From Candidatus Marinacidobacterium sp. (lineage in GTDB: Bacteria; Acidobacteriota; Vicinamibacteria; Marinacidobacterales; Marinacidobacteraceae): a stretch of 64,000 bases of DNA. The position numbers and the translations under genes are program-made. The stretch covers positions 6,164-70,163 of the forward strand of contig CBDFNG010000001.1 of the NCBI GenBank assembly GCA_965250045.1. The letters are read 5' to 3'. Every line of letters begins with the position of its first letter. The first letter of the stretch is position 1. Below are positions 1 to 16,243 of the stretch, piece after piece. The notes beneath the pieces were generated by a model, which searched no databases, had not been told where the DNA came from, and worked only from the letters and a program-made list of their open reading frames with translations.

Positions 1-1
1 A

Positions 2-553
2 GTGTGCCGCACCGTCATCGCCCGAGCGGTGACCCGCTACGGCGGCCTGGATGTCTTGATCAACAACGCCGGCGGTACGCATGACGGCGCATTCGCGGCC
101 ATGCCGCCCGGGGACTACGCGGGCCTGATTCGAGGCAACCTCTGCGCGCCTGTCGCGCTGGCGCTTCAGGCGGCGCCGTATCTCATCGCATCGGCACGGG
201 CGGGGCGCAGTGGCGCCGTGGTGATGATGGCGTCGATGGCCGGGGTGGCCGGAAAGGAAGGCCAGGTTCCCTACGCGGCCACCAAGGGTGGCCTGATCGG
301 AGCCACGCGGCTTCTCGCGCGGCATTTCGGCCGCCGCGGCGTACGGGTCAACGCGCTCGCGCCCGGTTTCATCCGCACCGGGATGGTCGAGTCTCTTGAT
401 CCGGGGATGTACGAGCACGTGCTCGACGCGAGTGCGTCACCCCGGATGGGAGAGCCGGACGAGGTCGCCGAGGCGGTCTGGTTTCTTGCATCCGGCGCCT
501 CGTCGTACTGCAACGGTGCAGTCCAGCGCGTCGACGGAGGGTTCCTGCGTTGA
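2..553 (+). CDS. Short-chain dehydrogenase/reductase, FabG-like ketoreductase (5' end truncated by window)
   Basis: Translation shows the SDR core NNAG, catalytic Y-x3-K (YAATKGG) and C-terminal VDGGF. The N-terminal TGxxxGxG dinucleotide motif is missing, so the gene starts upstream of the window. Confidence 0.85.
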   Translation: MCRTVIARAVTRYGGLDVLINNAGGTHDGAFAAMPPGDYAGLIRGNLCAPVALALQAAPYLIASARAGRSGAVVMMASMAGVAGKEGQVPYAATKGGLIGATRLLARHFGRRGVRVNALAPGFIRTGMVESLDPGMYEHVLDASASPRMGEPDEVAEAVWFLASGASSYCNGAVQRVDGGFLR

Positions 554-719
554 ACGGCGGCTTCGAATGGTGCGCCCCCGGCGCGCGTCTCCTGGCTCCC
601 TTGTCCGGTTCGGGAGAGGACCTGCTGGCCAGGGATGGAGAGGCGCGATGAGTAGCGAGCGAGGCCATCGGGGCGAGACGCGTACTTGTGAACCCACGGC
701 CGGCGATGGAGTGAACGCC

Positions 720-3086
720 ATGTCCGACACCGCGCATCAGGGTCACCAAGCCGTCGTCATCGGAATGGGAGCGTTCTCTCCACTGGGACGCAACTGTGCC
801 GAGATGAAGCAGGCGCTGCTCGACGGTCGCGATTCGATCGCAAAGGTGACCCGCTTCGACGCAGGCGGCTTCGCCGGTGAACTGGCCAGCAGCTTCGGCG
901 ATGACATCCCGGTCGAGGTGGATGCGTACGCGCGTTCGTGGATGGATCGTGCCACGCTCCTGTCCGTCGAAGCATACCGGGAGGCGATCCGCTGCGCGGG
1001 AGTGGATCCTCGGGACTTCGATCCGGAAAGGGTGGGGGTGTGCCTGGGCAGCTCGCACAGCGGTCTCGTGCGCACCGAGGAGGTCGCGCAGCACGTCTTC
1101 CGCAAGCAGTGGGACCGGATCCGTCCCAGAATCGTGGCGGCGACCCTGGTCTCTCACTGCACCTCGATCATCAAGCGTATGAGCGGCGCCCGAGGCCGCG
1201 TCATCACGATCTCCTCGGCTTGCGCCAGCTCCAATTCCGCCGTGGGCATCGGTGCCGATCTGGTACGCAGGGGCGAGCTGGATCTGGTCGTTGCCGGCGG
1301 CTCCGACACGGTGTCTCTCTCGGTCATGGCGGGATTCAATGCCCTGCGGGTGATCTCCCACGACAAGACCGCGCCGTTCTCCAACCCCGCCGGTCTCAAT
1401 CTCGGGGAAGGCGCCGGCATCGTCGTCCTCAAGCGCGGGGATCTGGAGATGCCGGGATGCGGGCCCCCGCTGGCCGAGATCCTGGGTTACGGCCTCTCCG
1501 GCGACGCCTGGCACGCCACGGCGCCGGACCCCGACGGAGTCGGGTGCGAGCACGCGATGATCGCCGCCCTCGAAGACGGCGGCCTGGCCGCGGCCGATAT
1601 CGACTATGTCAACGCGCACGGCACCGGGACGGAAGCCAACGACGCGGCGGAATCCCGATCGTTGAGCCGGCTGTTCGGCGATACCACCCCGATCAGCTCC
1701 ACCAAGTCCTTCTTCGGTCACACGCTGGGGGCTAGCGGCGTCCTGGAGCTGATCGCCTCCCTTCTGCTTGCCGGGGATGGAATGGTTCCGCACGGCCTGC
1801 GAATGGATGCGGTGCGCGAGGGATGCGCGCGGCTGGACTACGTGCGCAACGCCCCTCGCAAGGGCAGACCCGGCGTCATCATGGTCAACAACTTCGGTTT
1901 CGGCGGCAACAACAGCTCGCTGATTGTGCGAGCAAGCCGGAACAGCTCGCTGATCGTGCGTGCAGGCCGGGAGCGGGTCTCGCACCACCGGCGCCCCGCG
2001 CGGCCCGACGCGGTCGTGTTGACCGGGATCGGTGTCGTGAGCGCCGCCGGCGCGGGTGTCGCACGGTTCCGCGACGCTCTGGAGGCCGGTAGCGCCTTGG
2101 CCCGGAGGGATCCGGAGAGCGGCATCGACGCCGCGTACTGTCCCGGACTGCGCTTCACGGATCCCAAGCTCACGCGGTTCGCCCGCAACGCACCCGCGAC
2201 GCGCTATGCCGTCATCGCTCTGGACGAGGCGCTCGGCGCCGACAAGGCCGTCTACGACCACGACCCGCGTTCCGGTCTTGTCGGGGGAGTGATTTTCGCC
2301 GCTCAGAAGCCGACCGAGAAGTACATGGAAAGCGTGTTTGCCGACCCGGCGCTCGCGAGCGCGCTCTACTTCCCGATGACGACCATGAACGCGATGGGAA
2401 GCACCTGCTCGTTGGCATACGGAATCACGGGGTACACCACTACCGTGTGCGGCGCCGCGGCGGGCCTGGCCTACGCGTCGGATCTGGCCCGCGACGGCCG
2501 CCAGGATCGAGTGGCCATGGTCTCGGCGGATGAGTTATCGCCGCGGCTACTCAAAGTCTACCGGTACGCCGGTGTGGTGCGGGGTGCGACTGACGGGTGT
2601 CGTGGCCGGGCCGACGCACTGGGAGAGTTCGCAGCGGCGCTGACCCTGGAGCGGGCGTCGAGCGCGAGAGAGCGAGGCGTGGGTCCCCTGGCGCGCCTTG
2701 CGGGCTGGGCCCATTTCCAGGATCCCCTCGATCTCTCGGTTGCGCGGGACGGCTCCGCTCTTCGACGGGCGATCGATGCCGCCCACCACATGGCGGGGAT
2801 CACCGCTTCTCATATTGGCCTCGTCAGCCTGCTCGATCGGGGGGTCGCGCCGTCGCGCCGCGCCTGCCGCCGTGCCCTGAACGCCGTATTCGGAGAGGAG
2901 TCGCCGCCGATCGTCCGGCCGGACGAGGTGTTCGGCTTCGCTCCCTCCAGCGGCGCGGTGATGACCGTTGCCACCGCGCTGGCGAGCCTGCAACGCAACG
3001 AGGACGCCCCACGCCATGTGCTGGCCGCCGGCTGCGATCTGGTCGGCGACGGTTTCGCTTTCATCCTGGAGAGGAGCCCGCAGTGA
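720..3086 (+). CDS. Fused tandem beta-ketoacyl-ACP synthase: complete KS domain plus C-terminal KS-fold (chain-length-factor-like) domain
   Basis: N-terminal half has ISSACASS (Cys), WHATAPDP (His), NAHGTGT (His) and GHTLGASG. The C-terminal half (about 370 aa) aligns by eye to the thiolase/KS fold but lacks an HGTGT motif. An alternative in-frame ATG at 648 has a GGAGAG SD. Confidence 0.85.
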   Translation: MSDTAHQGHQAVVIGMGAFSPLGRNCAEMKQALLDGRDSIAKVTRFDAGGFAGELASSFGDDIPVEVDAYARSWMDRATLLSVEAYREAIRCAGVDPRDFDPERVGVCLGSSHSGLVRTEEVAQHVFRKQWDRIRPRIVAATLVSHCTSIIKRMSGARGRVITISSACASSNSAVGIGADLVRRGELDLVVAGGSDTVSLSVMAGFNALRVISHDKTAPFSNPAGLNLGEGAGIVVLKRGDLEMPGCGPPLAEILGYGLSGDAWHATAPDPDGVGCEHAMIAALEDGGLAAADIDYVNAHGTGTEANDAAESRSLSRLFGDTTPISSTKSFFGHTLGASGVLELIASLLLAGDGMVPHGLRMDAVREGCARLDYVRNAPRKGRPGVIMVNNFGFGGNNSSLIVRASRNSSLIVRAGRERVSHHRRPARPDAVVLTGIGVVSAAGAGVARFRDALEAGSALARRDPESGIDAAYCPGLRFTDPKLTRFARNAPATRYAVIALDEALGADKAVYDHDPRSGLVGGVIFAAQKPTEKYMESVFADPALASALYFPMTTMNAMGSTCSLAYGITGYTTTVCGAAAGLAYASDLARDGRQDRVAMVSADELSPRLLKVYRYAGVVRGATDGCRGRADALGEFAAALTLERASSARERGVGPLARLAGWAHFQDPLDLSVARDGSALRRAIDAAHHMAGITASHIGLVSLLDRGVAPSRRACRRALNAVFGEESPPIVRPDEVFGFAPSSGAVMTVATALASLQRNEDAPRHVLAAGCDLVGDGFAFILERSPQ

Positions 3087-3559
3087 ACGATTGCACCACT
3101 TCGCACGATTGCGCCGCTCCGCCGGCGGCCGTCACCACCTGCCGGGTCATCTTCGGAGATACCGATGCGGGCGGCATCGTCTACCACCCCCGATACCTCG
3201 AGATGGCGGAACGGGGGCGCAACGAACTCATGCGCGCGGTGGGGCTTGACCTCGGTGACATGTTCGAGCACCGCCGTCTCGGGCTCGCGCTGCGGTCGGC
3301 GGACATGAAATTCCATGTTCCCGCGCTGTTCGACGATCGCCTCACCATCCGGACCGCGGTCGAGAGACTCGGAGCAGCCAGCTCGATGTGGATCAGCCGC
3401 ATCCGTCGCGGGGGAACCCTGGTCTGCACCGTGCGCGCCGAGCTCGTGTGCATGGATCGTTTCAGTGGGCGGCCGATACTTTATCCCGACGATGTCCGGG
3501 GCGTCTTCGAACTGGCCCTGTCGGGTGCCCCGAAGTGCGGGCAGGAGATCTCCCGATGA
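3083..3559 (+). CDS. Hotdog-fold acyl-(ACP/CoA) thioesterase, YbgC/4HBT-like
   Basis: FGDTDAGGIVYHPRYLEM motif typical of 4HBT/YbgC thioesterases. The GTG start overlaps the upstream stop (GTGA). Confidence 0.75.
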   Translation: MNDCTTSHDCAAPPAAVTTCRVIFGDTDAGGIVYHPRYLEMAERGRNELMRAVGLDLGDMFEHRRLGLALRSADMKFHVPALFDDRLTIRTAVERLGAASSMWISRIRRGGTLVCTVRAELVCMDRFSGRPILYPDDVRGVFELALSGAPKCGQEISR

Positions 3560-4302
3560 AGCTCCTCGACGGCAAGTCTGCGATCGTCACTGGTGCCTCG
3601 CGCGGGATCGGCCGCTCCATCGCCCTCGAATACGCGAGACAGGGGGCGTCGCTGGTGCTCAACGCCTCCCGCGCCTCCGATGCGCTGGACGAGACCGCGG
3701 CGGCGATCCGGGACATGGGCGGGCGTTGCGAAACAGTGCCCGGCTCCGTCGTCGAGGCGCCCGTCGCCAGAGCCCTGGCAGCGAGAGCGGTGGAAGCGTT
3801 CGGCAAGCTGGACATCCTGGTCAACAACGCCGGCATCACCCGCGACAAGCCGCTGGTGATGATGAGGGAGAAGGAGTTCGACGAGGTGCTCGCCGTCAAC
3901 CTGCGTGGCGTCTACCAGTGCTCGCGCGAAGCAGTCCGGGAGATGATGAAACAGCGTAGCGGCCGCATCATCTCCATCAGTTCCATCTCCGCCCTGGCCG
4001 GCCGGCCGGGGCAATGCAACTACGCGGCGGCGAAGGCCGGAATCGTGGGCTTCACGAAGTCGCTCGCCCGCGAGGCGGGCAAGTTCAACGTGCTCGCCAA
4101 TGCGCTGCTGGTCGGCGTGATCGATACCGAGATGACCAGGCGCATGCCGCCGGCAGCGAAGACGAAGCTCCGGCAGATCATCCCCCTCGATCGGGTGGGG
4201 CGGCCGGATGAAGTCGCCGGCCCCTGCGTCTTCCTGGGCTCCGATCTGTCGACCTTCGTCACCGGTACCACCATCAACGTCAGTGGAGGGAGTTACGTCT
4301 GA
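3556..4302 (+). CDS. 3-oxoacyl-ACP reductase (FabG family SDR)
   Basis: TGASRGIGRSIA, NNAG, S...YAAAKAG catalytic tetrad residues, 248 aa. ATGA overlap with the upstream gene. Confidence 0.9.
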   Translation: MKLLDGKSAIVTGASRGIGRSIALEYARQGASLVLNASRASDALDETAAAIRDMGGRCETVPGSVVEAPVARALAARAVEAFGKLDILVNNAGITRDKPLVMMREKEFDEVLAVNLRGVYQCSREAVREMMKQRSGRIISISSISALAGRPGQCNYAAAKAGIVGFTKSLAREAGKFNVLANALLVGVIDTEMTRRMPPAAKTKLRQIIPLDRVGRPDEVAGPCVFLGSDLSTFVTGTTINVSGGSYV

Positions 4303-4607
4303 TGATCAATACCCTTGTTGAAGCGCGCGCCTACGCCGGGCACCGCAACGCACTCACCCACCGTCTCAAGGAGACTCTGGTCGAGCGCCTCGACCTCGAC
4401 CGGCAGCCCGACGAGATTCCGGACGACTGCCTGCTCTTCGGGGTCGGGCTGGGCCTTGATTCCGTGGATGCGCTCGAGATTGTCGTCGCCATCGAAGGCG
4501 AGTTCGGATTCCGCGTCGAGGATGACGATATGCAGGAGATTCGTTCCGTCAACTCGATCGTGGACTTGATCCTGTCCCGCCGAACTCAAGAGGAGAACGT
4601 GCGATGA
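4302..4607 (+). CDS. Acyl carrier protein (cluster-dedicated)
   Basis: 101 aa, acidic, with phosphopantetheine attachment motif LGLDSVDALE. Start overlaps the fabG-like stop. Confidence 0.8.
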   Translation: MINTLVEARAYAGHRNALTHRLKETLVERLDLDRQPDEIPDDCLLFGVGLGLDSVDALEIVVAIEGEFGFRVEDDDMQEIRSVNSIVDLILSRRTQEENVR

Positions 4608-5593
4608 CCGACTATCGACGCATGCGCAACCACGCAGGGCTGGCCGATCTGCAGGAATGGACCCGCTTCGACCTTTCGGGTCCGCAAGCGGGCGATGCGC
4701 TGAACGCGGTCGTCGGCTGCAACGTCCGGGATCTTTTTGAAGGGCGGGCTGCGAATACTCTGATCCCGTCACCGGCCGGAGGGGTCGATGCCATTGTCTG
4801 GATAATCGCGTTGGAACACGGCTTCCGGATCATGGGCGAGCCCGCCGACCGGGAGGCGATCCGCGCCGCCCTCGAGGAGAGCATCTCCGGCCGAGACGCA
4901 ACGCTCCGGGACGTCCGCGACAAGACATTCGCCCTCGCCCTGATCGGGCCGGAGGCCGAGACGGTCGCCTGGAAGGCATTTGGAGACGAGGTTCATTCCG
5001 TCGCCTTCCTCAACGCCCTGCCGCTCGGCGACCCGGCGGTCCTGGCCGCGCGGATCGGATACTTCGGGGAGTACGAGTTGTATCTGTTCGGCGAGCCCGC
5101 CGGCAAGCAGGCGGTGATCGACACGCTCAAGCAGGTCGGAGACGGCGACGCGCTCATTGTGGGGGAGAGTGCGTTCCCCGTGATGATGACCGAGATGGGC
5201 ACGATGAGCCGGGAGCGGGACATTCCGCCGGAAGTCTCCGTTTTCGAAGCCGGCCTGCAGTGGATGATCGATTTCCGCAAGGAGAATTTGCGGGCGGCCG
5301 GGGAGCTTGCGCGGAAGAAGCACTCGGTGGAGCGCAAATGCGTGCTGATGATCGTCGACGGTGGGGCCGAGGGTCTGCTGGGCCAGCCGGTCTTTATCGA
5401 GAACTGTGACATCGGCCGCATCCAGTCCGCCTTCCCCTCGGAAGCCCTCGGCAGGTCCGTCGCTCTCGCCTACCTCGTCGAGGACCTGGGGATGCCGGGT
5501 CTGTCCTGCGCCGTCGGCACAGACCGCAGGGCCGGCAAGACCGTATCCGCGCCGGCCTTCCTGGGGCGCTCCATCCTCAACAGCCTGAGTTGA
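4604..5593 (+). CDS. GcvT-fold (aminomethyltransferase / folate-binding YgfZ-like) family protein
   Basis: ARIGYFGEYELYLF resembles the RTGYTGEDGFEI core of GcvT. The C-terminal barrel-like GRIQSAFPSEALGRSVALAYL resembles the GcvT_C pattern. ATGA overlap with the ACP gene. Confidence 0.65.
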   Translation: MTDYRRMRNHAGLADLQEWTRFDLSGPQAGDALNAVVGCNVRDLFEGRAANTLIPSPAGGVDAIVWIIALEHGFRIMGEPADREAIRAALEESISGRDATLRDVRDKTFALALIGPEAETVAWKAFGDEVHSVAFLNALPLGDPAVLAARIGYFGEYELYLFGEPAGKQAVIDTLKQVGDGDALIVGESAFPVMMTEMGTMSRERDIPPEVSVFEAGLQWMIDFRKENLRAAGELARKKHSVERKCVLMIVDGGAEGLLGQPVFIENCDIGRIQSAFPSEALGRSVALAYLVEDLGMPGLSCAVGTDRRAGKTVSAPAFLGRSILNSLS

Positions 5594-5603
5594 AGGAATC
5601 TTC

Positions 5604-6908
5604 GTGGACACCGGACCGACATATTCGGGTGCGAGGTTGCGCGCGATGGTCAGGTTGATGCTGGTCAGCCTCATCGTGATGATGGTGACGATCGTCGCGC
5701 TGTACTTCACACCGTTGACCGTGGCGCCGCTCATCGCCGCCTCTCTCTACGCCGGTCTGTGGGCGTATGAGCGGCGGCTCGGGGTGGCTTCTCCCATTAC
5801 CCGGATCATGATCGTGTTCTATCTGTTGTTCGCGTTCGCCCGCTACTGGCTTGATGATCTGTCCTGGATGGCCTGGTTCTCCCCGATGGTTTATTGGACC
5901 CTGGCGGCACTGATCTTCGCGCTGCTGCTGGCGGGCCGGCCATTCACCGCCGTCTACACGGGAGACGCCAGCTTCCCGCCGCTCCACCGCGCGATCTCGC
6001 TGTTATGGGGAGGGTTGCATTTCGCAGCCGGCCTTGCCGCGCTGGTCCTGATTCCGGGGTTGGGTTTTCTCTACTTGCCGCTGAGCCTGATGGTGCTCGG
6101 GGCGCTCGTCACGGTGTGGCTGAACTTCGTCTCGATGGGACCCGCCTACGGACGGCAGCCCCGGTTCGAACTGGAAGGCTACTCATTCCGCCAAGCGGCG
6201 AGCCGGGACGACCGGGAGACCTTCTACAACGTCATCGCCGAGGCATATCGGGCGGATCTGCAGAGCGCGCTCGGAATGCGCCGAAAGATCGACAAGGAAG
6301 CGATCATCCGCGAACACCAAGCTTCCAACCGCAAGTGGCAAGGCGATTTCCTGCCGTTTCTGGTGTTCGCCGGCGACCGGCCGGTGGGGGGAATCTGCAT
6401 CTTCTTCGATCACGAGGAGCGTGGTCTGCCCATCGAGGGCGAAGCCCGAATCGATCTGAAGTCATGGCGCCGCGTGGGTCCGGTCGCAGAAGTCGGCCGC
6501 CTCGGCGTGCTCCGGCGCTACCGCATCAGCCCGGTGCTCCTGAAGGGGCTCTTCAAATGCGTCATCGAAGCGGCCGCCGAGAGGCGCGTCCACTTCATCT
6601 TCAACGACTCCTTCAATTTCCAGTCGAAGATGTACGAGAAGATCGGCTTCAAGGCGCTTCACGACGAGCCGTACGTGTCAGGGGACGAGCACTCTACCGG
6701 CTACGGGCTCAAGGTCCTGCCGATGATGATGGACTTGGCAGGCATGGTGCGTCTGGACACACCGGGCGGCATGGCCGCCGACATGCGCGACATCCTGGCC
6801 CCTTACGTGATGGAACGCTTCTTCAAACACCTTGCCATCCGGGAGATGGCGAGCACCTTCCTTTTTTCCGAAACACAACCGAGGGAGATTGAGAATGCAA
6901 AAGTCTGA
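5604..6908 (+). CDS. Polytopic membrane domain fused to a GNAT-like N-acyl amino acid synthase / autoinducer-synthase-fold acyltransferase domain
   Basis: The first 180 aa or so form about 5-6 hydrophobic helices. The C-terminal 240 aa contain EVGRLGVLRRYR, matching the E-[VL]-[GS]-R-x-x-V-x3-[YF]R signature of OlsB/FeeM-type acyl-ACP-dependent N-acyltransferases. GTG start. Confidence 0.5.
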   Translation: MDTGPTYSGARLRAMVRLMLVSLIVMMVTIVALYFTPLTVAPLIAASLYAGLWAYERRLGVASPITRIMIVFYLLFAFARYWLDDLSWMAWFSPMVYWTLAALIFALLLAGRPFTAVYTGDASFPPLHRAISLLWGGLHFAAGLAALVLIPGLGFLYLPLSLMVLGALVTVWLNFVSMGPAYGRQPRFELEGYSFRQAASRDDRETFYNVIAEAYRADLQSALGMRRKIDKEAIIREHQASNRKWQGDFLPFLVFAGDRPVGGICIFFDHEERGLPIEGEARIDLKSWRRVGPVAEVGRLGVLRRYRISPVLLKGLFKCVIEAAAERRVHFIFNDSFNFQSKMYEKIGFKALHDEPYVSGDEHSTGYGLKVLPMMMDLAGMVRLDTPGGMAADMRDILAPYVMERFFKHLAIREMASTFLFSETQPREIENAKV

Positions 6909-7734
6909 AGGCCGGCCGATCGGCCGCACTGTTCTGGGGACTTGGCTGACGGCAGGAGTGCTGGCGCTGGGATACGGCCTCATGGTGTCCGGCTGCGCGC
7001 CGGTGACGCCCGTGGTCGAGCCCACTGCCCCGGCCGGGGAGATCGACAGCTTGGAAAAGGCCGAGCAGGCTTGGCGGGCCGAGAATATCGCAGAGCACGA
7101 ACCGATCTGGAACGAGGAGAACGATCCGGACGGCGATCCGTTCTCGGCCGGCTTGGCTGCGTTCCATCTGGCGTCAGTGACTTTCGATCCGGCGTGGTCC
7201 AACGCGGCCATCGACGCCTTCGACAAGGTGATCGAGAGCAGTCCCGGCTTCACCCTCGCCCGTGCGTGGCGGGGCTCGGCCCATGCGCTGATGGCCCGCG
7301 ATTACCCCGTCAAGGGGCTCTGGCAGATCGTCCCGGGTCCCGGTTTCGTCCGGCTCTACCACGTCAAGACAGCCTTCTCCGATCTGGACGCGGCGGTCGG
7401 CGCCGCTCCAGACGATCCCGTCATCCGGCTCATCCGCGGCTCAACCTATCTCGGGATGCCGTCGGTCTTCGGTGGTGACGACGAGGGGCTCGAGGATTTC
7501 GACCAGCTGCGCGCCTGGACCCGCGACCCGGAGAGCAATAGCGATCACGCGGACGTCCTGCGCTCGACGGGCTGGCGTGAGGAGTACTACCTCTCGCGGT
7601 CCCGGGCGATGGAGAAGATCGGAGAGAACGAAGACGCGGCCCGGTCCTGGATGCAGCTTTCCGAGGTGACCGACAACCCCATTCTCATGGAGCTGGCGAA
7701 ATGGCACCGGATCTCTCTCGGCGCATCGCAATAA
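6895..7734 (+). CDS. Predicted lipoprotein, helical-repeat protein (paralogue A of 11604-12224)
   Basis: Signal peptide with lipobox MVSGC. Shares the block A-W-x3-GSA-x-A-x-M-x-RD ... AAP-x-D-x2-[IV]RLIR ... LED[FM] with ORF 11604-12224. Confidence 0.55.
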   Translation: MQKSEGRPIGRTVLGTWLTAGVLALGYGLMVSGCAPVTPVVEPTAPAGEIDSLEKAEQAWRAENIAEHEPIWNEENDPDGDPFSAGLAAFHLASVTFDPAWSNAAIDAFDKVIESSPGFTLARAWRGSAHALMARDYPVKGLWQIVPGPGFVRLYHVKTAFSDLDAAVGAAPDDPVIRLIRGSTYLGMPSVFGGDDEGLEDFDQLRAWTRDPESNSDHADVLRSTGWREEYYLSRSRAMEKIGENEDAARSWMQLSEVTDNPILMELAKWHRISLGASQ

Positions 7735-8885
7735 CCGGCGCCGGAGCCATCGGCTCGTTCGGGCTCGGCACCGAGGCGCTCTGGGACTGCCTGGGCGCGG
7801 GCAGGGCGAAATTCGCCCCCTGCACGCGCTACCCCGGCGCCCTTCCGTGCGCGGAGGCGGTGAAGCCGAACCTGCGGCGCATGCTGCAATCCGGCCGGCT
7901 CTCGAGGATGTCGCTGGTGTCGCAGTTCGCGATCGCGGCGGTGTATCTGGCGTTGAGCCAAGCCGGCATCCTTACCGGCAAGGGGGCGGCCGGCCGCGCC
8001 ATCGGTATCGTATACGGCACCTCGAACGGACCTGGCGCGACCACTCAGGAGATCTACGACGACCTGATCGACCGTGGTCCGACGGGGGTGAAGCCGCGGG
8101 TCTTCCAGGAATCCGTCTTCAACGCCCCAGCGAGCCTGGCGAGCATCCATTTCGGGCTGAAGGGACCGATCCAGGTTCTGGCCGCCAGCGCCTGCGCCCC
8201 GTCGGTTCTCTTTCAGGCGCAGATGCTGCTGGCGCATCCCGGCGTCGATGCGGTGATCGCGCTCTGCGCCGACGAGCTGTGCGAGGCGATCCAGTCCGCC
8301 CTGCGGGTCTTGCGCTGGCACCGGTCGCCCGCCGGGGACGAAGGGCCGTCGCCGTCCGGCCCCGGACGGGGAGCGATCTCGTCGGAGGGGGCGGCGGCCC
8401 TGATCCTCGAGCGCGGTGACGATGCCCGGGCTCGGGGCGCGGTCACGCTGGCCGAGATGGCCGGTGCCGCCTCGACCAACGACGCCTGGAAGCTGGTCCG
8501 GCCGGCGCGAGACGGCCGTGGACTGGCCGCCGCGATGAACGAGTGTCTTGCCGATGCCGAGGCGGCGCCGGGCGACGTGGACATGATCCTGTCGGCCTCC
8601 GCCAACACCGACATCGACGATGGTCTGGAAACCGCGGCCGTTCAATCGGTCTTCGGGGACGCCGCGCCGCCGGTGGCATCGACCAAGGACGACATCGGAT
8701 ACGCGATGGGAGCCGCGGCGATGTTCGACATCACGCTGGCGACCGAGATGGTCCACCGTGGCCGGGTCCCCGCCTCCCTGGATGCGGCCGGGACCCTCGC
8801 CGGCGGGATCGGATCGGTTTTGTGCGCCGGCATCGGCCTGAACGGCCTGTTCGGCGCCGTTCTGATCAGGAGAGCGGCATGGTGA
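7701..8885 (+). CDS. KS-fold protein lacking both catalytic His residues (chain-length-factor / KS-beta-like)
   Basis: ITGAGAIGSFG N-terminus and GLKGP...SACAPS region. TNDAWKLVRP replaces DAYHxTAP, and SASANTD replaces AHGTGT. Confidence 0.8.
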   Translation: MAPDLSRRIAITGAGAIGSFGLGTEALWDCLGAGRAKFAPCTRYPGALPCAEAVKPNLRRMLQSGRLSRMSLVSQFAIAAVYLALSQAGILTGKGAAGRAIGIVYGTSNGPGATTQEIYDDLIDRGPTGVKPRVFQESVFNAPASLASIHFGLKGPIQVLAASACAPSVLFQAQMLLAHPGVDAVIALCADELCEAIQSALRVLRWHRSPAGDEGPSPSGPGRGAISSEGAAALILERGDDARARGAVTLAEMAGAASTNDAWKLVRPARDGRGLAAAMNECLADAEAAPGDVDMILSASANTDIDDGLETAAVQSVFGDAAPPVASTKDDIGYAMGAAAMFDITLATEMVHRGRVPASLDAAGTLAGGIGSVLCAGIGLNGLFGAVLIRRAAW

Positions 8886-9826
8886 CGACGGCGCTGGTGT
8901 TCCCGGGGCAGGGTACCCAGTCCGCAGGGATGGGGCGCGGGCTGATGGATCTGCCCGCGGTGGCGGCGACGGTCGAGCAGTGTTCCGCGCAAACCGGCCT
9001 CCCGATCCTGGAGTACGTGCTGAATACCCCGGATACGGCGCTGCGCGAGACGGAGCGGGCGCAACCGGCAATCTTCGCCCTGTCGGTCGGGCTCGCCCGC
9101 GCCCTGCTGGACGAGGGGGTCCGGCCGGCTCTGCTCGCCGGCCACAGCATCGGTCACTTCACGGCCCTGACGGTGTCCGGGGCCTTGCAGCCGGGCGACG
9201 CGGTGCGCCTGATTGCGCAGCGCGGCCGGCTCATGGCCGCCGGCGGCCGGCGTCGACCCGGCGGCATGGCAGTCGTGCACGGCCTGGACAGCCGGACGGT
9301 CACGGAAGTGATCGAAGAATCCGGCCTTGCGGTGTGGCCCGCCGTCGTCAATCTCCCACGGCAGATCACGGTGTCCGGCGACCGGGACGCGCTCGAGGAG
9401 GCGCGGCGCCTGTTCACCGGACTCGGCGGCCGGTGGCGCAAGCTCAACGTGTCGGGCGCATTCCACTCGCCGCTGCTCGACGAGGAGGCCGCGGACTTCG
9501 CCGCCCTGGTGGATACGCTCGAAATCGCCCAGCCGTCGGCTCCGATCCTGCGTAACAGCGACGGTGCGGCACTCACCCGGCCCGAATGCATTCGCGAGGA
9601 TCTGAAACGACATATGACCGGGCCCGTACGCTGGGTCGCGGTCATGGAGGCCCTGCTCGATGCCGGAGCAGAGCTCGTCATCGAGGCCGGGCCGGGCAAG
9701 GTCCTGACCGGCCTCACCAAGCGCTACGCCCGTGATCTGCCGGTCATGAGCACGGATACCCCTTGCGCACTGCACCGTGCCGTACAGGCGGCCACGGCGG
9801 ATCAATACAAGGAGGACTGCCGATGA
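8879..9826 (+). CDS. Malonyl-CoA:ACP transacylase (FabD family)
   Basis: FPGQGTQ N-terminus, GHSIGH active-site Ser, VSGAFHSPLL His motif. 7-nt overlap with the upstream gene. Confidence 0.9.
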   Translation: MVTTALVFPGQGTQSAGMGRGLMDLPAVAATVEQCSAQTGLPILEYVLNTPDTALRETERAQPAIFALSVGLARALLDEGVRPALLAGHSIGHFTALTVSGALQPGDAVRLIAQRGRLMAAGGRRRPGGMAVVHGLDSRTVTEVIEESGLAVWPAVVNLPRQITVSGDRDALEEARRLFTGLGGRWRKLNVSGAFHSPLLDEEAADFAALVDTLEIAQPSAPILRNSDGAALTRPECIREDLKRHMTGPVRWVAVMEALLDAGAELVIEAGPGKVLTGLTKRYARDLPVMSTDTPCALHRAVQAATADQYKEDCR

Positions 9827-11082
9827 TTCCCCGGATGAAATCGCGTGACGCACTGGTGACCGGTGTAGGACTGGTCAACGCGATAGCGAGCGATTTCGAG
9901 TCGTTCATCGAGGCCATGCGCACGGGCCGATGCGGGCAACGACCGATTACCAGCTTCGACGCCAGCGGGTTGCGCAACCCGCGAGCCTGCGAGGCGGTGG
10001 AATTCGACCCGCGTCCGGTCTACGAACGGCGGGACAAGAGAAAGATGGATCGCAGCTCCGAGCTCGTCCTCGCCGCCTTCGACCAGGCCGTCGCCATGGC
10101 GAAGATCGATCTCCACAGCGTGGAGCCGATGCGGGGCGCAGTGGTCATGGGATCCACCCTGGGCGGATCGGTGACCGGATTCCGGTACTACCGCGCCGCC
10201 CGGGAAGGCCGCCGCCGACCTTCTCAGTTGCGGGATCACTCGATGCATGCGCCGGGCTATCGCCTGTGCATCGAATCCGGCTTTCTCGGACCCAATCTGG
10301 TGCTCTCGACCGCATGCACTTCATCCAACCTCGCGCTGGCGGTCGCACACGACCTGGTGCGCACGGACAAGGCGGACGTCGTCATTACCGGGGGTTTCGA
10401 CACCATGTCCCAGGTCTCCTGCTCCGGCTTCAGCGTGATGCGCAACGTCACCCCCGGCATCTGCCGCCCGTTCGATCGCAATCGCGACGGCCTCGTCCTC
10501 GGCGAAGGCAGCGCGGTGCTGATCGTGGAGGCCGATGATTTCGCGGCCCGGCGCGGCGCACGGGCTCTGGCCGCGATCCGCGGCTACGGAATCGTCTCGG
10601 ACGCCCGCAGCATGACCGCACCGGACCCCACCGCGGCCGGGCCCGCCGCCTGCATGCGGCAGGCGATCGACATGGCCGGTCTGACCCCGGCCGGCGTGGA
10701 TCTGATCTGCGCCCACGGGACAGGCACGCTGCTCAACGATCAGACCGAGGCAAAGGCATTGTGCGACGTATTCGGTCCGCGCGGCGGAGAGATCCCCTGT
10801 GCATCGATCAAGTCGATGCTCGGCCATACCCTCGGCGCCGCGGGAGCAATGAACGTGGCCGCGGCGGTTGCCGCCCGGCGAGGCGGCTACATTCCGCCGA
10901 CCATCCACTTCGAGGAGCCGGACCCACGCGATCCGGTGTCCTGTTCCGCCGAGGCGCGTCCCGGGACACCGCGGCACGTTCTGTCGAATACGCTCGGATT
11001 CGGCGGTGCGAATTGCAGCGTCGTGATGGAGCTGGCCGACGATTCCGGGGTGCGCGAACGAATCCGCCCCACTCTTGTGTGA
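9823..11082 (+). CDS. Beta-ketoacyl-ACP synthase (FabF/FabB-like) with an atypical triad
   Basis: STACTSS (Cys), CAHGTGT (second His), SIKSMLGHTLGAAG. The first His position reads SDARSMTAP (Ser instead of His). ATGA overlap. Confidence 0.85.
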   Translation: MIPRMKSRDALVTGVGLVNAIASDFESFIEAMRTGRCGQRPITSFDASGLRNPRACEAVEFDPRPVYERRDKRKMDRSSELVLAAFDQAVAMAKIDLHSVEPMRGAVVMGSTLGGSVTGFRYYRAAREGRRRPSQLRDHSMHAPGYRLCIESGFLGPNLVLSTACTSSNLALAVAHDLVRTDKADVVITGGFDTMSQVSCSGFSVMRNVTPGICRPFDRNRDGLVLGEGSAVLIVEADDFAARRGARALAAIRGYGIVSDARSMTAPDPTAAGPAACMRQAIDMAGLTPAGVDLICAHGTGTLLNDQTEAKALCDVFGPRGGEIPCASIKSMLGHTLGAAGAMNVAAAVAARRGGYIPPTIHFEEPDPRDPVSCSAEARPGTPRHVLSNTLGFGGANCSVVMELADDSGVRERIRPTLV

Positions 11083-11091
11083 GAGCAAATC

Positions 11092-11607
11092 TTGAAAAGG
11101 AGAAACTACGTGACTGCATCCAACGCAGGACAGTACGACATCGAGGCCATCAAGCGGCGCCTGCCGCATCGCTATCCCTTCCTGATGGTGGATCGCATCG
11201 AGGAGAGCGGGCCGGGATATGCGATCGGGGTCAAGAACGTCACCGCTAATGAGCCCTGTTTCCAGGGGCATTTCCCGGGGCGCGCGGTCATGCCCGGGAC
11301 GCTGATCGCCGAAGCCTTGATGCAGACCTCGGCGTTCGTGGGCCGGTCTGCAGAGCCGGACGGCGGACGCGGTGCCATAGCGGACGTCAACGGGAGCAGG
11401 ACCGACCAGCAGCTTTTCTGCATCGGCATGAATCTGAAGTTCCGCAAGCCAGTGGTGCCGGGCGATCGGCTGCGCATGGACGTTCGTTTCGTACGGATGC
11501 TGGGGGATATGGTGCGGATCAAGGCGACCGCGCAGACCGCGGCCGGGGTCGTGGCGTCCGGAGACCTGAACCTTGCCGTCGTTACAGCCGAGGAGGACGA
11601 GACATGA
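11092..11607 (+). CDS. 3-hydroxyacyl-ACP dehydratase (FabZ family) with an internal insertion
   Basis: LPHRYPFLMVDRI and FQGHFPGRAVMPG motifs. An insertion of about 25 aa (SAEPDGGRGAIADVNGSRTDQ) follows the central helix. TTG start at 11092, or GTG at 11110. Confidence 0.85.
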   Translation: MKRRNYVTASNAGQYDIEAIKRRLPHRYPFLMVDRIEESGPGYAIGVKNVTANEPCFQGHFPGRAVMPGTLIAEALMQTSAFVGRSAEPDGGRGAIADVNGSRTDQQLFCIGMNLKFRKPVVPGDRLRMDVRFVRMLGDMVRIKATAQTAAGVVASGDLNLAVVTAEEDET

Positions 11608-12224
11608 AATCCGCTACCAGCGCGTATGTATTCGCCGCCGCACTCTCGCTGGCCGGCGTCTCGGTCCCGGCCGCCGTGGTGCCGCCCGCGCACGCGGCCG
11701 AAGCCGGCTCGGCCGGGGAGCCGTCGCCGGAGCTCATGGCCCTGCGCAAGCAGGGGATCGCATTGCATGACGAGGCGCGCGAGGGCGACCAGGAGGCGGC
11801 CGAGCAGGCGGTCGAGCGGCTCGAACGTTACCTGAAACAATTCTCGAAAGACGGGGAGGCCTGGGCGTATCTCGGCAGCGCCTACGCGATGATGGGGCGC
11901 GACGCCTCCAGTGTCGTCAACAAGATGCGATACACCAACCGCGGCCTGCGCCATCTGGATCGCGCGCTGGACGCGGCGCCTCGGGATTTCACCGTGCGCC
12001 TGATTCGCGCCAAGGTGAATTCCAGCTTGCCGAAGATGTTCAGCCGCAGCGATGCAGCGCTCGAGGACATGCTGGCGCTCGACGAGATCTTCCACGAGGA
12101 GCCATTGCCGGGGCTCGCCCGCTGGATGGTCGAGATCTACGAAGAGCTGCAAAGCCGCGCCCCGGACGCCGGCCCGTGGGGCGAACGTCTCGATCAGGCC
12201 CGCGAGCTCTCCGGGGGGCAGTAA
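11604..12224 (+). CDS. Secreted helical-repeat protein (paralogue B of 6895-7734)
   Basis: N-terminal signal peptide (AAALSLAGVSVPAAVVPPAHA). Shares conserved blocks with ORF 6895-7734. ATGA overlap with fabZ-like. Confidence 0.55.
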   Translation: MKSATSAYVFAAALSLAGVSVPAAVVPPAHAAEAGSAGEPSPELMALRKQGIALHDEAREGDQEAAEQAVERLERYLKQFSKDGEAWAYLGSAYAMMGRDASSVVNKMRYTNRGLRHLDRALDAAPRDFTVRLIRAKVNSSLPKMFSRSDAALEDMLALDEIFHEEPLPGLARWMVEIYEELQSRAPDAGPWGERLDQARELSGGQ

Positions 12225-12229
12225 GGACG

Positions 12230-12935
<706 letters not shown>

Positions 12936-12943
<8 letters not shown>

Positions 12944-14159
12944 TCTCATCTCCCTGTCTGTGAGGAACATCTTTCGCAACGGGCGTCGGACCGCCATCAC
13001 GGTGTTTTCGATCGTCATCGGCTTCGCCGCCATGGCCTGTTTCGGAGGCTTCATCGAGTTCTCCTTCGAAGGATTGCGGGAGAACACCATTCGCACCCAG
13101 CTCGGTCATCTCCAGATCTATGCGCACGGGTACTGGAAGAAACGGGTCTCGGACCTGGAATCCGTCCTGATCGCCGACCCGGACGAGGTGATGGAGCGCA
13201 TCGCCGATCTGCCAGGCGTCGCCACCGTGACCCCGCGCCTGTCCTTCTCGGGGCTCGGCAGCACCGGCAATGCGACGGTGAACATGTCCGTCATCGGGGT
13301 GGACCCGGAAGGTGAGCAGGATTTCTCGGATTTCGAGATCCTGGTGGAGGGGCGCACGCTGGAGCCGGACGACCCCGAAGCCGGGCTGATCGGGGAGGAA
13401 TTGCGAAACGGTCTGGGGGCCGAGATCGGCGACTGGGTGACGGTGCTGACCAGCTCGTTCGACGGCGTCATCAACGCGGTCGACTTCAGGGTGGCCGGCG
13501 TCGTGCGAACGGGTTCCAAGGAGTATGACAGCGTGTTCGCCAAGGTTCCGATCGAGCTGGCGCAACGCGCGAGAGAGACCGAGGAGGTGGAGCGGATCGT
13601 CGTGCTGCTCGAGAACACCGAGGATCTGCAGGAGTTGCAACCCCGGATCGAGGAGATTCTCTCGAAGCTCGATCGAAAGTTCGAAATCCGCCGCTGGGAC
13701 GAGCTGGCCGGCTTCTACGACGCGGTGGTTGCGCTCTATACGGGGATCTTCACGGTATTCGCGGGCATCGTGGGGGTGGTGGTGATGTTCTCGGTCGCCA
13801 ACACCATGACGATGGCCGTATTCGAGCGCACCGGGGAGATCGGGGCCCTGCGGGCGATCGGTGCGCGCCGCTCCACCCTGGTTGCGATGTTCCTGACCGA
13901 GGGGGTCGGGGTCGGGCTGCTCGGCGCCGGCCTCGGCGTGGTGGCGTCGTGGCTGATCGCCGGTGCGGTGGAGATCGCGGGGGGCATCCCGATGCCGCCG
14001 CCTCCCGGCATGTCCCAGGGATTCCAGGCCTATTTCAACCTCACCGGCGGGGTGCTGCTCGATGCCTTCGCCGTCACCGTGGCGGCGACGCTTGTGTCCT
14101 CGGTTTACCCGGCTTTCGCGGCGTCACGGATTCGTATCGTGGAGGCTTTGCAGCAATGA
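12936..14159 (+). CDS. ABC transporter permease, FtsX/LolC/LolE-like
   Basis: 407 aa with N-terminal TM helix, large periplasmic loop and three C-terminal TM helices. Overlaps the ATPase gene by 8 nt. Confidence 0.85.
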
Positions 14160-14899
14160 TGACGAACTCGATTACCGGTCGTTGCCTTGGCGCTGCCGGT
14201 ATCAGTCTCTCTCTGATCGCCAGCTTGGCCTCGGCGCAGGAGATGACACTCCTGCAGCAGGTGGATGCGGTGCGTGCGCCGGGCGGCGCGTTCACCTTCA
14301 AGGTCGCGATTACCGCGCCGGACGGCGATGGACTGAAGCTGTCCGTACGCGTGGCCGATCAGGTCAAGAGCCTGGTCCGTTATCTCGAGCCGCCGCGCAG
14401 CGCCGGACGCTCGCTCCTGTTCATCGAGCGCAACATGTGGGTGTACATTCCCGGCACCCGTCAGGTCTTGAGGATCTCGCCGCAGCAGCGGGTGCTGGGC
14501 GGAGTGGCGAGCGCCGACATCGCTCGCATGGTCTACTCGCTCGACTATGCCCTCGACTCCGTCGAGGAGCTGCCCGAGGAGGGGGGAGAACGCCGTCGGC
14601 GCCTCACCCTCTCCCGCCGCTCGAAGGGCGCGGCCTATGCGCGGATCACCCTCGTCTCCGGCGGCGACGAGGTACGCCCGCTCCAGGCATCCTTCTTCGC
14701 TTCCTCCGGCCGCGGCCATCTCAAGACCGCGTATTTCGAAGGCTACCGCGAGGTGCTGGGGCGGCCGCGTCCGACCGTCCTGCGGGTGATCGACCATTTG
14801 AACGGCGACCAGGAGACCGTCCTCGAATACACCGACTTCGCGCTCGAAGACACGCCCGACACCTGGTTTCAACCGACCTATCTCAAACGCCTGAGATAA
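14156..14899 (+). CDS. LolA-like outer-membrane lipoprotein-sorting family protein
   Basis: Signal peptide, then SLLFIERNMWVYIPGTRQVLRISPQQRVLGG.ASADIARMVYSLDY, typical of the outer membrane lipoprotein-sorting protein family. ATGA overlap with the permease. Confidence 0.7.
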   Translation: MMTNSITGRCLGAAGISLSLIASLASAQEMTLLQQVDAVRAPGGAFTFKVAITAPDGDGLKLSVRVADQVKSLVRYLEPPRSAGRSLLFIERNMWVYIPGTRQVLRISPQQRVLGGVASADIARMVYSLDYALDSVEELPEEGGERRRRLTLSRRSKGAAYARITLVSGGDEVRPLQASFFASSGRGHLKTAYFEGYREVLGRPRPTVLRVIDHLNGDQETVLEYTDFALEDTPDTWFQPTYLKRLR

Positions 14900-14980
14900 T
14901 GCACCGGTTGCGCGCACCGCTGATCCGCCGGCGTTCTGCCGCGGCCCGGCCGTCATCTCGAGTGCCCGAGGTGACCTGAA

Positions 14981-16243
14981 ATGATGTTTCGCTTCCGCGC
15001 CCTGTCCGTTGCCACGGCGCTGGCCGCTGTCCCGGCAGCCGGGGCCGATGCCGGCCCGTGGGCCTGGTCACTGAACGGGCTGGTGGACGTCCGCGCGCAT
15101 CGCAGTGAGGACAACGCAACGCAGCTCGTGCCGGAGCCGGAGCGGATTGGACTCGATACCCATCTCCTCTCGGTCACCACCGTGGCCGGGCTGGAGGCAT
15201 GGAACGGCCCCGTGACGGTCGCCGGCGCCGGCCGGCTGTACGCCCGCACCGCGCCGGGCGAGGGAGAACGCGCGGTGCGGCTCCACGTGGACGAGCTCCA
15301 TGCGGAGTACGCCGTGACCCCGGAGCACTTCCTGTACGCCGGGCGGCGCCACATCGTCCACGGGCGGTCACTGGGGGTGAATCCTTTGGACGTGGCTCTC
15401 GATCCCCTCGATCTCGATCGGTCCAAGGACGCGAACCGGCGGCGCAGCGAGATCGAAGGGCAGGACATGCTCGGCTTCGAATCTCTGCTCAGTGACCAGT
15501 TCACGCTGGCCGGCTACTGGACACCGGGCGAGCGCGCCCTGCTGGGCGGCACGTTCACGCTGCCGGATTGGAAGTCCGATCTCACGGCCCTCGTGCTCGA
15601 CGATGAACGTCCCGGTGCGGGGCTGTCCTTCTCGAGGACGCTCGGCGATGCTTGGCTTTCCTATGCGGATGTCGCGGTCCGCGGGGGCCGGGACCGGATG
15701 GTCATCCGGGCCGACCGTGGATCGGATGCGGGTCCGGGCGCGTTCCTCGTCGAGGAGGGCGACGACTCCCGGCTCTTTGCGCAGTCGATTGTCGGAGCCG
15801 GCTACACGCTCGAATCCGGGGCTACCTTCAACCTCGAATACCATTTCGACGCCAACGGTTACTCCACCGGCGAATGGAACGAGATCACCGGCCTGATCGT
15901 AGAGGCCGACACGGCTCGTGAAGAAGGACGTTTCGGCGGACTTCCCACCGGCAATCTCCTCCGGCTCAGCGCACAGCTCAATCAGTTCACGCTGAGGCGG
16001 CACTACGGCTTCCTGAGAGCACAGCATCCCGGCCTGTTCGGCCACGATCTCGCGGCGGAGATGACCGTCTTTCACAATCTGGCGGATCACAGCGGGAGCA
16101 TGGGGCTGCGCCTGGAACGCGGGCTGGGCCCGAACCTGCTGCTTGGCGTCGAAGGGCGCTATCTGTACGGCGAGGGCCTGGACGAGTTCGCGCTGCGCAC
16201 CGCGAGGCTGTCCGGTTCCATCCACGTCACCATCCATTTCTGA
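14981..16243 (+). CDS. Predicted outer-membrane beta-barrel protein
   Basis: Signal peptide (ALAAVPAAGADA), alternating hydrophobic strands, and a terminal aromatic residue (...VTIHF) as in OMP C-terminal signatures. Confidence 0.55.
   Translation: MMFRFRALSVATALAAVPAAGADAGPWAWSLNGLVDVRAHRSEDNATQLVPEPERIGLDTHLLSVTTVAGLEAWNGPVTVAGAGRLYARTAPGEGERAVRLHVDELHAEYAVTPEHFLYAGRRHIVHGRSLGVNPLDVALDPLDLDRSKDANRRRSEIEGQDMLGFESLLSDQFTLAGYWTPGERALLGGTFTLPDWKSDLTALVLDDERPGAGLSFSRTLGDAWLSYADVAVRGGRDRMVIRADRGSDAGPGAFLVEEGDDSRLFAQSIVGAGYTLESGATFNLEYHFDANGYSTGEWNEITGLIVEADTAREEGRFGGLPTGNLLRLSAQLNQFTLRRHYGFLRAQHPGLFGHDLAAEMTVFHNLADHSGSMGLRLERGLGPNLLLGVEGRYLYGEGLDEFALRTARLSGSIHVTIHF

Follow-up and report, generated by a model that had tools for sequence, protein, structure and literature searches.

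What does a type II lipid synthase without an enoyl reductase (ER) make when it is encoded together with a membrane-bound N-acyltransferase-like protein and an envelope exporter, and where is the product sent? This question is raised by an operon at positions 2–16243 of a 64,000-nucleotide stretch of contig CBDFNG010000001.1 (Candidatus Marinacidobacterium sp.), a stretch referred to here, at its full length, as the window. Aryl polyene (APE)-type clusters are regarded as the biosynthetic gene cluster family with the widest distribution among bacteria, and, to our knowledge, the anchoring of their products and their transport to the cell surface are not yet clear. The operon represents a separate and so far uncharacterised line within the type II polyketide synthases (PKSs) of the ER-less, APE-like kind. 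On balance, we consider it somewhat probable that it combines an ER-less, APE-like type II PKS/fatty acid synthase (FAS) with a lipid-attachment step and a trans-envelope exporter, along the pathway proposed below. As such, it offers a natural comparison system for APE, in which the same three-stage logic is kept with a different means of anchoring (N-acylation plus a folate-type enzyme) and different machinery for transport (an ATP-binding cassette (ABC) transporter, a LolA-like protein and a barrel). Because carriers include cultivable Pseudovibrio and Polycladidibacter, genetic tests can address what the product is and what it contributes to host association. A first-pass annotation had interpreted the locus as an orphan lipid operon hard-wired to an envelope export module and delivering an N-linked acyl chain to the outer membrane, an interpretation that, taken as a whole, is partly supported.

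Gene order and synthase components

Positions 2–16243 hold 17 open reading frames (ORFs; g01–g17), all on the plus strand and mostly overlapping. Neighbouring ORFs overlap by 1–34 nt or are separated by 5–10 nt, apart from wider gaps of 166 nt upstream of g02 and 81 nt upstream of g17, and the start/stop overlaps at 3083, 3556, 4302, 4604, 6895, 7701, 8879, 9823, 11604, 12936, and 14156 were verified. The G+C content at third codon positions (GC3) is 0.79–0.86 in these frames, indicating that they are truly coding. Domains were assigned by running Pfam and NCBIfam profiles on every ORF and applying the NCBIfam equivalog cut-offs, which recovered every domain claimed in the first-pass annotation; its chain of about 17 co-directional, overlapping genes is likewise confirmed. 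The upstream border, already placed beyond the window, is visible in L011 (ENA assembly ERZ26167216), a contig 99.6% identical to window positions 1–15593. There, eno, ftsB, ispD, ispF, truD, and one small minus-strand gene precede, in this order, an acyl carrier protein (ACP) gene (108 aa, just left of the window), a degenerate short-chain dehydrogenase/reductase (SDR) gene (219 aa, whose Pseudovibrio ortholog is a weak adh_short_C2 match), and g01; the full locus corresponds to L011 4179-20990 plus g17. The full operon therefore begins about 1.2 kb left of the window and comprises 19 genes, 17 of them inside it, with two ACPs instead of the single dedicated ACP counted earlier.

Four ketosynthase (KS) folds are encoded in three ORFs, as had been noted at first pass, and only two of them are catalytic. 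The first gene concerned, g02 (720..3086), specifies a 788-aa fusion of a KS with a KS-fold domain resembling a chain length factor (CLF) (Pfam ketoacyl-synt N+C), which is present in all orthologs. In an alignment of the four KS folds, its N-terminal half has an intact Cys-His-His triad, whereas all three residues are gone from its C-terminal half. The triad is also complete in the ketosynthase g11 (9823..11082), assigned by Pfam and NCBIfam, whose best PDB match is 9s5h_B, followed by FabF entries and Iga11. Entry 9S5H may represent the anammox FabF heterodimer considered below. In g09 (7701..8885), both His residues are missing, and the Cys seen in the window protein gives way to SSNSG or GWAAG at this site in orthologs, so that g09 is best described as a non-catalytic, CLF-like KS-fold protein. 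A function of g09 as a Cys-only transacylase was rejected because the Cys is not kept in orthologs. The operon thus pairs two catalytic KS domains with two triad-deficient partners, and where the Cys would lie, the CLF-like partners have Ala or a residue that varies.

Reduction of the chain is represented by two FabG-type ketoreductases (KRs) of the SDR family. The gene g01 (2..553; Pfam adh_short_C2, 4e-40; YAATK motif) is cut at its 5′ end by the window and is entire in L011 (5198-5950; 250 aa), while g04 (3556..4302; Pfam, 5e-57) is the first gene of the KR–ACP–GcvT–N-acyl amino acid synthase (NAS) core and shares 51-54% identity with the KRs of the sister clusters L015/L016 described below. 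Both SDRs carry a YxxxK motif and are thus not of the FabI type. The dehydratase (DH) g12 (11092..11607; FabA, 1.5e-22; NF000582, 129 bits against a cut-off of 113) is a FabZ-type 3-hydroxyacyl-ACP dehydratase with the FabZ His/Glu motifs, and its orthologs also match the ApeI-like and ApeP-like Pfam families. The ApeE-like ACP g05 (4302..4607) matches PP-binding at 2.5e-10, with NF006617 as its best NCBIfam model. A YbgC/4HBT-type hotdog thioesterase (TE), g03 (3083..3559; 4HBT_2, 2e-16; TIGR00051, 72.7 bits against 68.7), bears the YbgC-type Asp motif, as read from the translation. The acyltransferase (AT) g10 (8879..9826; Acyl_transf_1, 3e-42) is a FabD-like malonyl-CoA:ACP transacylase with the malonyl-type motifs GHSxG and GAFH. 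A gene of this type is absent from the otherwise syntenic locus L001 (OY282378.1; 13330-13445) and from the sister cluster L016; the FabD-like AT is therefore apparently dispensable and presumably replaced by housekeeping FabD.

No ER was found in the window, in the upstream DNA of L011, or in any of the approximately 10 loci examined. Since KR and DH occur without an ER, a polyene or a partly reduced unsaturated/3-hydroxy product is expected. The first-pass annotation was also right that an adenylating enzyme, an ammonia-lyase, an MMPL exporter, and a glycosyltransferase (GT) are missing, as neither the window nor the DNA upstream in L011 encodes any of them. The upstream DNA of L011, L001, L002, L003, and L008 contains no ligase or lyase gene, and FabH is absent both from there and from the window operon. 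Nor does the remaining 48 kb of the window (16355–64000) encode a phosphopantetheinyl transferase (PPTase), a ligase, an ER, or further PKS genes.

The GcvT-like protein and the membrane FeeM-like protein

The lipid-attachment step is assigned to g07 (5604..6908), which combines a six-transmembrane (six-TM) domain with a FeeM-like NAS domain of the GNAT (GCN5-related N-acetyltransferase) fold. An AlphaFold model built from a 44-sequence alignment (pLDDT 86) predicts six TM helices at residues 9–175, followed by an alpha/beta domain. In a Foldseek search, the top six matches to this soluble domain were all FeeM (PDB 2G0B; E 5e-9 to 2e-7, TMt 0.76-0.79), with generic GNATs next. The best of these matches (E 5e-9, TM 0.78) lends model-based support to the N-acylation proposed at first pass. 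The FeeM family PF21926 is pre-annotated on many g07 orthologs, and the corresponding protein of the sister cluster L015, which also matches Acetyltransf_5, scores 39.8 bits against it. The six-TM domain has no Pfam match. An Arg-rich N-terminus and six predicted helices would put the catalytic domain on the cytoplasmic side, within reach of acyl-ACP. In the fee cluster, an ACP gene lies near the synthase gene (FeeL/FeeM), and an ACP gene is likewise near g07. Unlike FeeM, however, g07 is fused to a six-TM domain, lies inside a PKS/exporter operon, and has only sub-threshold sequence similarity to the family.

Between the ACP and g07 lies g06 (4604..5593), a GcvT-fold, aminomethyltransferase-like protein of 329 aa (GCV_T, 1.7e-28, 100 bits). 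It begins at about residue 36 of true T-proteins, the first ~35 aa being missing, and falls below the GcvT equivalogs (NF001567, 95 against 300; TIGR00528, 64 against 236). Neither gcvH nor gcvP adjoins it, and a glycine cleavage role was rejected given the absence of H and P proteins and the truncation of the T-like protein. Comparison with PDB 1WOO and 1PJ5 by HMMER alignment indicates that the GYxGE...E and FEAGL motifs are retained and that an invariant acidic residue (D/E62) sits in the loop bearing the catalytic Asp of T-protein and of dimethylglycine oxidase (DMGO). A gene of this type always directly follows the ACP gene. In one database protein from one contig (P0251, 430 aa), the two are joined in a natural in-frame ACP~GcvT-like fusion with a plausible linker, which hints at a physical partnership of the GcvT-like protein with the carrier protein.

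A doubtful but specific role for g06 would be that of a folate-dependent tailoring enzyme acting on a carrier-tethered intermediate, adding or removing a one-carbon or aminomethyl unit ahead of amide formation by the FeeM-like domain, with the phosphopantetheine arm standing in for the lipoyl arm of H-protein. If a GcvT-like enzyme did act on an ACP-bound substrate, this would represent a new PKS/lipid tailoring chemistry and a new reaction type. It would also imply a new type of head group for bacterial envelope lipids, with the ACP–GcvT–membrane NAS trio as its signature.

The export module

The 3′ part of the operon is devoted to export. Its first gene, g13 (11604..12224), encodes a periplasmic, helical, TPR (tetratricopeptide repeat)-like protein with a signal peptide and weak TPR matches, 51% identical to its counterpart in the sister cluster L016. 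It is followed by the LolD/MacB-type ABC ATPase g14 (12230..12943; ABC_tran, 1e-34; TIGR02211 LolD, 234 bits against a cut-off of 308) and the LolCE/MacB-type permease g15 (12936..14159; MacB_PCD and FtsX; TIGR02212, 119 bits against 362). A periplasmic carrier of the LolA superfamily, g16 (14156..14899; PF17131, 1.5e-27), has a signal peptide and matches PDB 3BUU (NE2245, LolA superfamily) at E 2e-29. The last gene, g17 (14981..16243), specifies a predicted outer-membrane beta-barrel of ~18 strands with a signal peptide and a C-terminal Phe; its AlphaFold2 model, built from database homologs (pLDDT 71), resembles AlgE in Foldseek (E 9e-12, TM ~0.5) and also OprD/Occ channels. A further component is encoded upstream by g08 (6895..7734), a helical lipoprotein (lipobox LMVSG|C) for which no Pfam family was found. 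As the first-pass annotation had noticed, g08 and g13 are paralogous secreted proteins (BLASTP, 26% identity over 114 aa, E 6e-10).

By analogy, g13–g17 together with g08 may act as a Lol/Lpt-style relay. The module shares with Lol and MacB systems a LolD-like ATPase, an MacB_PCD+FtsX permease, and a soluble periplasmic LolA-superfamily protein. It differs from Lol in having one permease gene instead of LolC plus LolE and, in place of a LolB fold, an AlgE/OprD-like barrel and two helical proteins. A genuine Lol system was rejected on the profile scores, the presence of PF17131 in place of LolA PF03548, and the absence of LolB. No LolB was detected among the operon proteins, and no TolC-type or membrane-fusion partner is present.

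Orthologous loci and their distribution

The design had been called an orphan; it is not isolated, since both orthologous and sister clusters were found. A search of 1.84 billion representative proteins with a g07 profile returned 166 matches at E<=1e-3, of which 56 reached E<=1e-30 and ~45 were full length, a rarity that fits a specialised function. At 90% clustering, g07 has about 108 relatives, nearly all from ENA metagenome assemblies. Named carriers are Pseudovibrio, Polycladidibacter stylochi, Candidatus Spongiihabitans, and sponge Thiotrichales metagenome-assembled genomes (MAGs). The operon is conserved in many uncultured sponge symbionts and is also present in cultivable Pseudovibrio and Polycladidibacter, among them Pseudovibrio sp. 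GCA_001623245.1 (WP_063288722.1) and P. ascidiaceicola (WP_109314801.1).

Gene order is identical in L001 (MAG OY282378.1, Gammaproteobacteria; 72-91% protein identity, without the AT gene) and in L002 (Pseudovibrio), L003, and L008 (30-68% protein identity). Such strict synteny across two proteobacterial classes marks the operon as a single selected functional unit. The coupling of synthase and exporter is kept in Gammaproteobacteria, in Pseudovibrio, and even in one distant sister cluster, which bears out the earlier description of the ABC/LolA-like/barrel module as hard-wired to the operon.

Some loci carry additional genes. In L002, L003, and L008, a double-hotdog ApeI-like dehydratase is encoded upstream (2624-3415, 2605-3429, and 225-1055, respectively) and an Sfp-type PPTase downstream (20434-21132, 20428-21144, and 19792-20449); neither accompanies the gammaproteobacterial operon, and the remainder of the 64-kb window has neither. 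A LuxR-type regulator gene (Autoind_bind+GerE) flanks L003 (21216-21323) and a gene for a LytTR-domain protein flanks L002 (1060-1854), both of which are possible regulators of the cluster. No comparable regulator adjoins the window operon.

Distant sister clusters

A rarer set of sister clusters (L013–L016) keeps the core of KR, ACP, GcvT-like protein, membrane NAS, and KS-fold protein. In L013, the order is AMP-ligase, methyltransferase, KR, ACP, GcvT-like, membrane NAS, sulfotransferase, TPR protein, KS-fold, AT, KS, short CLF, TE, and KS. L015 comprises sulfotransferase-like, AMP-ligase, KR, ACP, GcvT-like, NAS, KS-fold, AT, KS, CLF, TE, KS, DH, and APS (adenosine 5′-phosphosulfate) kinase genes. 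L016 has sulfotransferase, AMP-ligase, KR, ACP, GcvT-like, NAS, KS-fold, KS, CLF, TE, KS, and DH genes, followed by an export module of TPR protein, ABC ATPase, permease, LolA-like protein, and barrel that is 33-56% identical to g13–g17. The ligase of these clusters is ApeH-like (28-30% identity, E 1e-21 to 1e-23), and their TE and ACP are ApeK-like and ApeE-like, respectively. Compared with them, the window subfamily has lost the ligase and the sulfotransferase, carries one more ACP along with a pseudo-SDR and a KR, and has its KS~CLF fusion and TE placed at the 5′ end. One or two sulfotransferase genes accompany the ApeH-like ligase gene in L013, L015, and L016, with an APS kinase in L015. 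The combination of ligase and sulfotransferases suggests sulfated aryl-polyene-type amides as a related, likewise uncharacterised, product class.

Comparison with known systems

The APE cluster of E. coli CFT073 (L007) and the E. coli fab genes (L019) served as comparison sets for BLASTP. In E. coli, APE biosynthesis is proposed to proceed in three stages, namely formation of a core acid, attachment to an anchor, and Lol-like delivery to the outer membrane (PMC8253772). The window operon shares this logic, including a LolA-fold protein and a lipoprotein in export, as well as the general composition of the synthase: an ER-less type II PKS with catalytic KS and non-catalytic CLF-type partners, a FabG-like KR, a FabZ/ApeI-like DH, a hotdog TE, and a dedicated ApeE-like ACP. 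An ApeH-like ligase is shared by the sister clusters only. In contrast, the window operon is without ApeH, ApeB, ApeD (a lysophospholipid acyltransferase-type protein, LPLAT), ApeJ (GT), ApeG, ApeM (MMPL/RND), and ApeN (DUF3261), and it adds the GcvT-like protein, the membrane FeeM-like synthase, an extra KS-fold, the ABC transporter, the PF17131 protein, and the barrel. N-acylation thus appears in place of ApeD/ApeJ, and an ABC system in place of the MMPL protein. No BLASTP match to ApeL/M/N/G was obtained among the window operon proteins, and at E 1e-3 BLAST linked none of the TE, DH, and LolA-like proteins of the window to ApeK/I/P/L. The KS proteins g02 and g11 are 28-32% identical to ApeO/ApeR, with equal or greater similarity to FabF; the KRs g01 and g04 are 34-36% identical to ApeQ, with g04 nearer FabG and g01 about equal. 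The ACP g05 is 38.6% identical to ApeE and 29% to AcpP. Membership of the KS and KR in the APE clade is unsupported by these BLASTP comparisons with E. coli Ape and Fab proteins. The first-pass separation of the locus from aryl-polyene clusters accordingly stands for gene content, which differs from that of E. coli APE, and fails for pathway logic, which is the same and is accompanied by ApeH/ApeK/ApeE-like parts in the sisters.

A housekeeping type II FAS was rejected, in line with the first-pass annotation, as the scores are sub-equivalog and neither FabH nor FabI is encoded. Bit scores against the Fab equivalogs are 319-334 versus 494 for KS, 275 versus 298 for KR, 228-229 versus 261 for AT (TIGR00128), and 44 versus 70 for ACP; equivalog cut-offs are reached only by the generic FabZ (g12) and TE (g03) models. 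An aromatic (minimal) type II PKS was likewise rejected, given the lack of cyclase/aromatase domains, the presence of FabZ, and a CLF that does not match the Gln type.

Closer parallels exist among highly reducing systems. Ishigamide Iga11/12 (PDB 6KXD) and amxFabF also pair a catalytic KS with a triad-less KS-fold partner, and in ishigamide and similar highly reducing type II PKSs a polyene-type reduction takes place without an ER, the ishigamide polyene acid ending as an amide. The FabF/triad-less FabF heterodimer of anammox bacteria (amxFabF) primes via malonyl-ACP decarboxylation (bioRxiv 10.64898/2026.05.19.726425), which sets a precedent for a cluster without a loading enzyme. These systems belong to other phyla and have other tailoring, and the published descriptions consulted mention neither an exporter module nor a GcvT-like gene. 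Flexirubin and xanthomonadin clusters share a FAS-like type II polyene core with several KS/KR/DH/TE genes and a LolA-like gene with an exporter (PMC3992019, PMC3949708), but have TAL (tyrosine ammonia-lyase)/CoA-ligase or XanB2/AMP-ligase starters together with DarAB, a GT, an acyltransferase, and an MMPL-type exporter, all of them missing from the window operon; for flexirubin, the differences agree with those drawn in the first-pass annotation (PMC3992019). The literature yielded no paper describing a cluster with GcvT-like, FeeM-like, and KS genes, and thus no characterised equivalent.

Proposed pathway and alternative interpretations

From sequence, we infer the product class (an unsaturated N-acyl lipid), its outer-membrane destination, and the role of g06. 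The KS/CLF-type pairs would self-prime by decarboxylation of malonyl-ACP, and chain extension with reduction and dehydration only would give a conjugated polyene or a partly 3-hydroxylated/unsaturated acyl-ACP. At the inner membrane, the cytoplasmic FeeM-like domain of g07 would take the chain over from the adjacent ACP and join it to an amine, probably that of an amino acid, while g06, encoded next to the ACP and g07, may carry out a folate-type one-carbon step with either the amine acceptor or the ACP-bound intermediate as substrate. The LolD/LolCE-like transporter g14/g15 would then pull the amphiphile out of the inner membrane and pass it to the periplasmic LolA-like carrier g16, from which it would reach the AlgE/OprD-like barrel g17, with the helical paralogs g13 (periplasmic) and g08 (lipoprotein) as putative accessory factors.

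Several observations weigh against this pathway. FabI acting in trans could reduce the chain, and since the KS and KR are no closer to ApeO/R/Q than to FabF/FabG, the polyene product follows only from the missing ER and the architecture. The release route is ambiguous because both a thioesterase and an N-acyltransferase are present. For g07, the Pfam FeeM score (PF21926, 20-22 bits) lies under the gathering score of 27. In g06, two HMMER alignments differ by two residues on whether D62 equals the catalytic Asp, and the positions equivalent to Y83 and R227 of T. maritima T-protein, which we take to be folate contacts, are changed to N and F/L, respectively. The open barrel modelled for g17 is AlgE-like and could mean secretion rather than insertion into the outer membrane.

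Two of the rival explanations concern the acyl chain. The locus could be a true aryl-polyene cluster: a ligase from another place in the genome would activate an aromatic acid, the operon would extend it, and the aryl polyene would be N-linked instead of ester-linked, a reading made plausible by the ApeH-like AMP ligase, ApeK-like TE, and methyltransferase of sister clusters with the same core and by the ApeE-like ACP g05. A survey of 21 Pseudovibrio strains also listed four 'aryl polyene and related' clusters (PMC5563371), which may correspond to the present locus. We nevertheless regard it as unlikely, since no ligase, TAL, or chorismatase gene was found in or beside the operon across six orthologous loci from two classes, or in the other 48 kb of the window, and since the extra 5′ ACP, KR, pseudo-SDR, and fused KS~CLF look like a replacement of the loading step. 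More specifically, no gene for aryl starter activation (ApeH-type synthetase, TAL plus CoA ligase, or XanB2) occurs in 1–16243 or upstream of it in L011, L001, L002, L003, and L008. About as improbable is a saturated or 3-hydroxy fatty-acyl aminolipid, comparable to ornithine, glycine, or lysine lipids, made with FabI in trans, for which the dedicated FAS would set only chain length or hydroxylation. It would account for KS and KR enzymes as near to FabF/FabG as to APE enzymes, for the score of g12 above the FabZ equivalog cut-off, and for g07, whose FeeM/OlsB-type fold is typical of aminolipid synthases, as well as for the Acetyltransf_5 match in L015. However, four KS folds in KS/CLF-type pairs, two KRs, and an ACP pair seem too much for plain acyl supply, and the ER is consistently absent from the loci examined. 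We also know of no dedicated FAS or exporter at aminolipid loci such as OlsBA and GlsB.

The third rival shares the N-acylation step and concerns destination: the product could leave the cell via the barrel as a signal, surfactant, or antibiotic of the N-acyl amino acid type, and not be a structural lipid of the outer membrane. The FeeM/LuxI-related fold of g07, the resemblance of g17 to the AlgE exporter and Occ channels, the export of small molecules by MacB-type ABC pumps, the LuxR-type and LytTR regulators flanking L003 and L002, and the host-associated lifestyle of the carriers are all compatible with such a function. Against it, a LolA-fold carrier and a lipoprotein fit a very hydrophobic, cell-bound cargo, as in APE and Lol, and a TolC-type or membrane-fusion partner is absent, so that we rate secretion as slightly less probable again than either of the two chain-based rivals. 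The reading of the operon as an ER-less synthase coupled to N-acylation and outer-membrane delivery is the one we retain.

Start sites, strain variation and genomic context

Start positions are ambiguous for three genes: g07 (5604 or 5646), g02 (648 or 720), and g12 (11092 or 11110). Public gene calls use 5646, 648, and 11110, respectively, while alignments of orthologs speak for 720 in g02 and, for g07, divide between 434-aa and 420-aa forms. A promoter/terminator scan gave counts not above those in shuffled sequence.

A co-occurring strain variant, L012 (ENA ERZ26167216 ctg489533), is 99.7% identical to window positions 1–9758. From ~9758 of the window onward, within the AT gene's 3′ end, it departs from the window, and its segment 15155-20990 runs into opposite-strand HEPN_RiboL-PSP, GmrSD_N, and AAA_23 genes, implying that the operon is interrupted or truncated there by a defence-like island.

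In the window, the operon ends at 16243, beyond which convergent housekeeping genes on the opposite strand begin. The rest of the window (16355–64000) is ordinary chromosome, with Smr, MsrQ/MsrP (MsrQP), PurL, PurB, aconitase, a Liv ABC transporter, and the tricarboxylic acid (TCA)-cycle genes lpd-sucB-sucA, gltA, and mdh. It also encodes a transglutaminase/circularly-permuted ATP-grasp pair, a sulfatase, hydantoinase A/B, a CoxMSL-like molybdo-hydroxylase, an IclR regulator, and solute-binding proteins.

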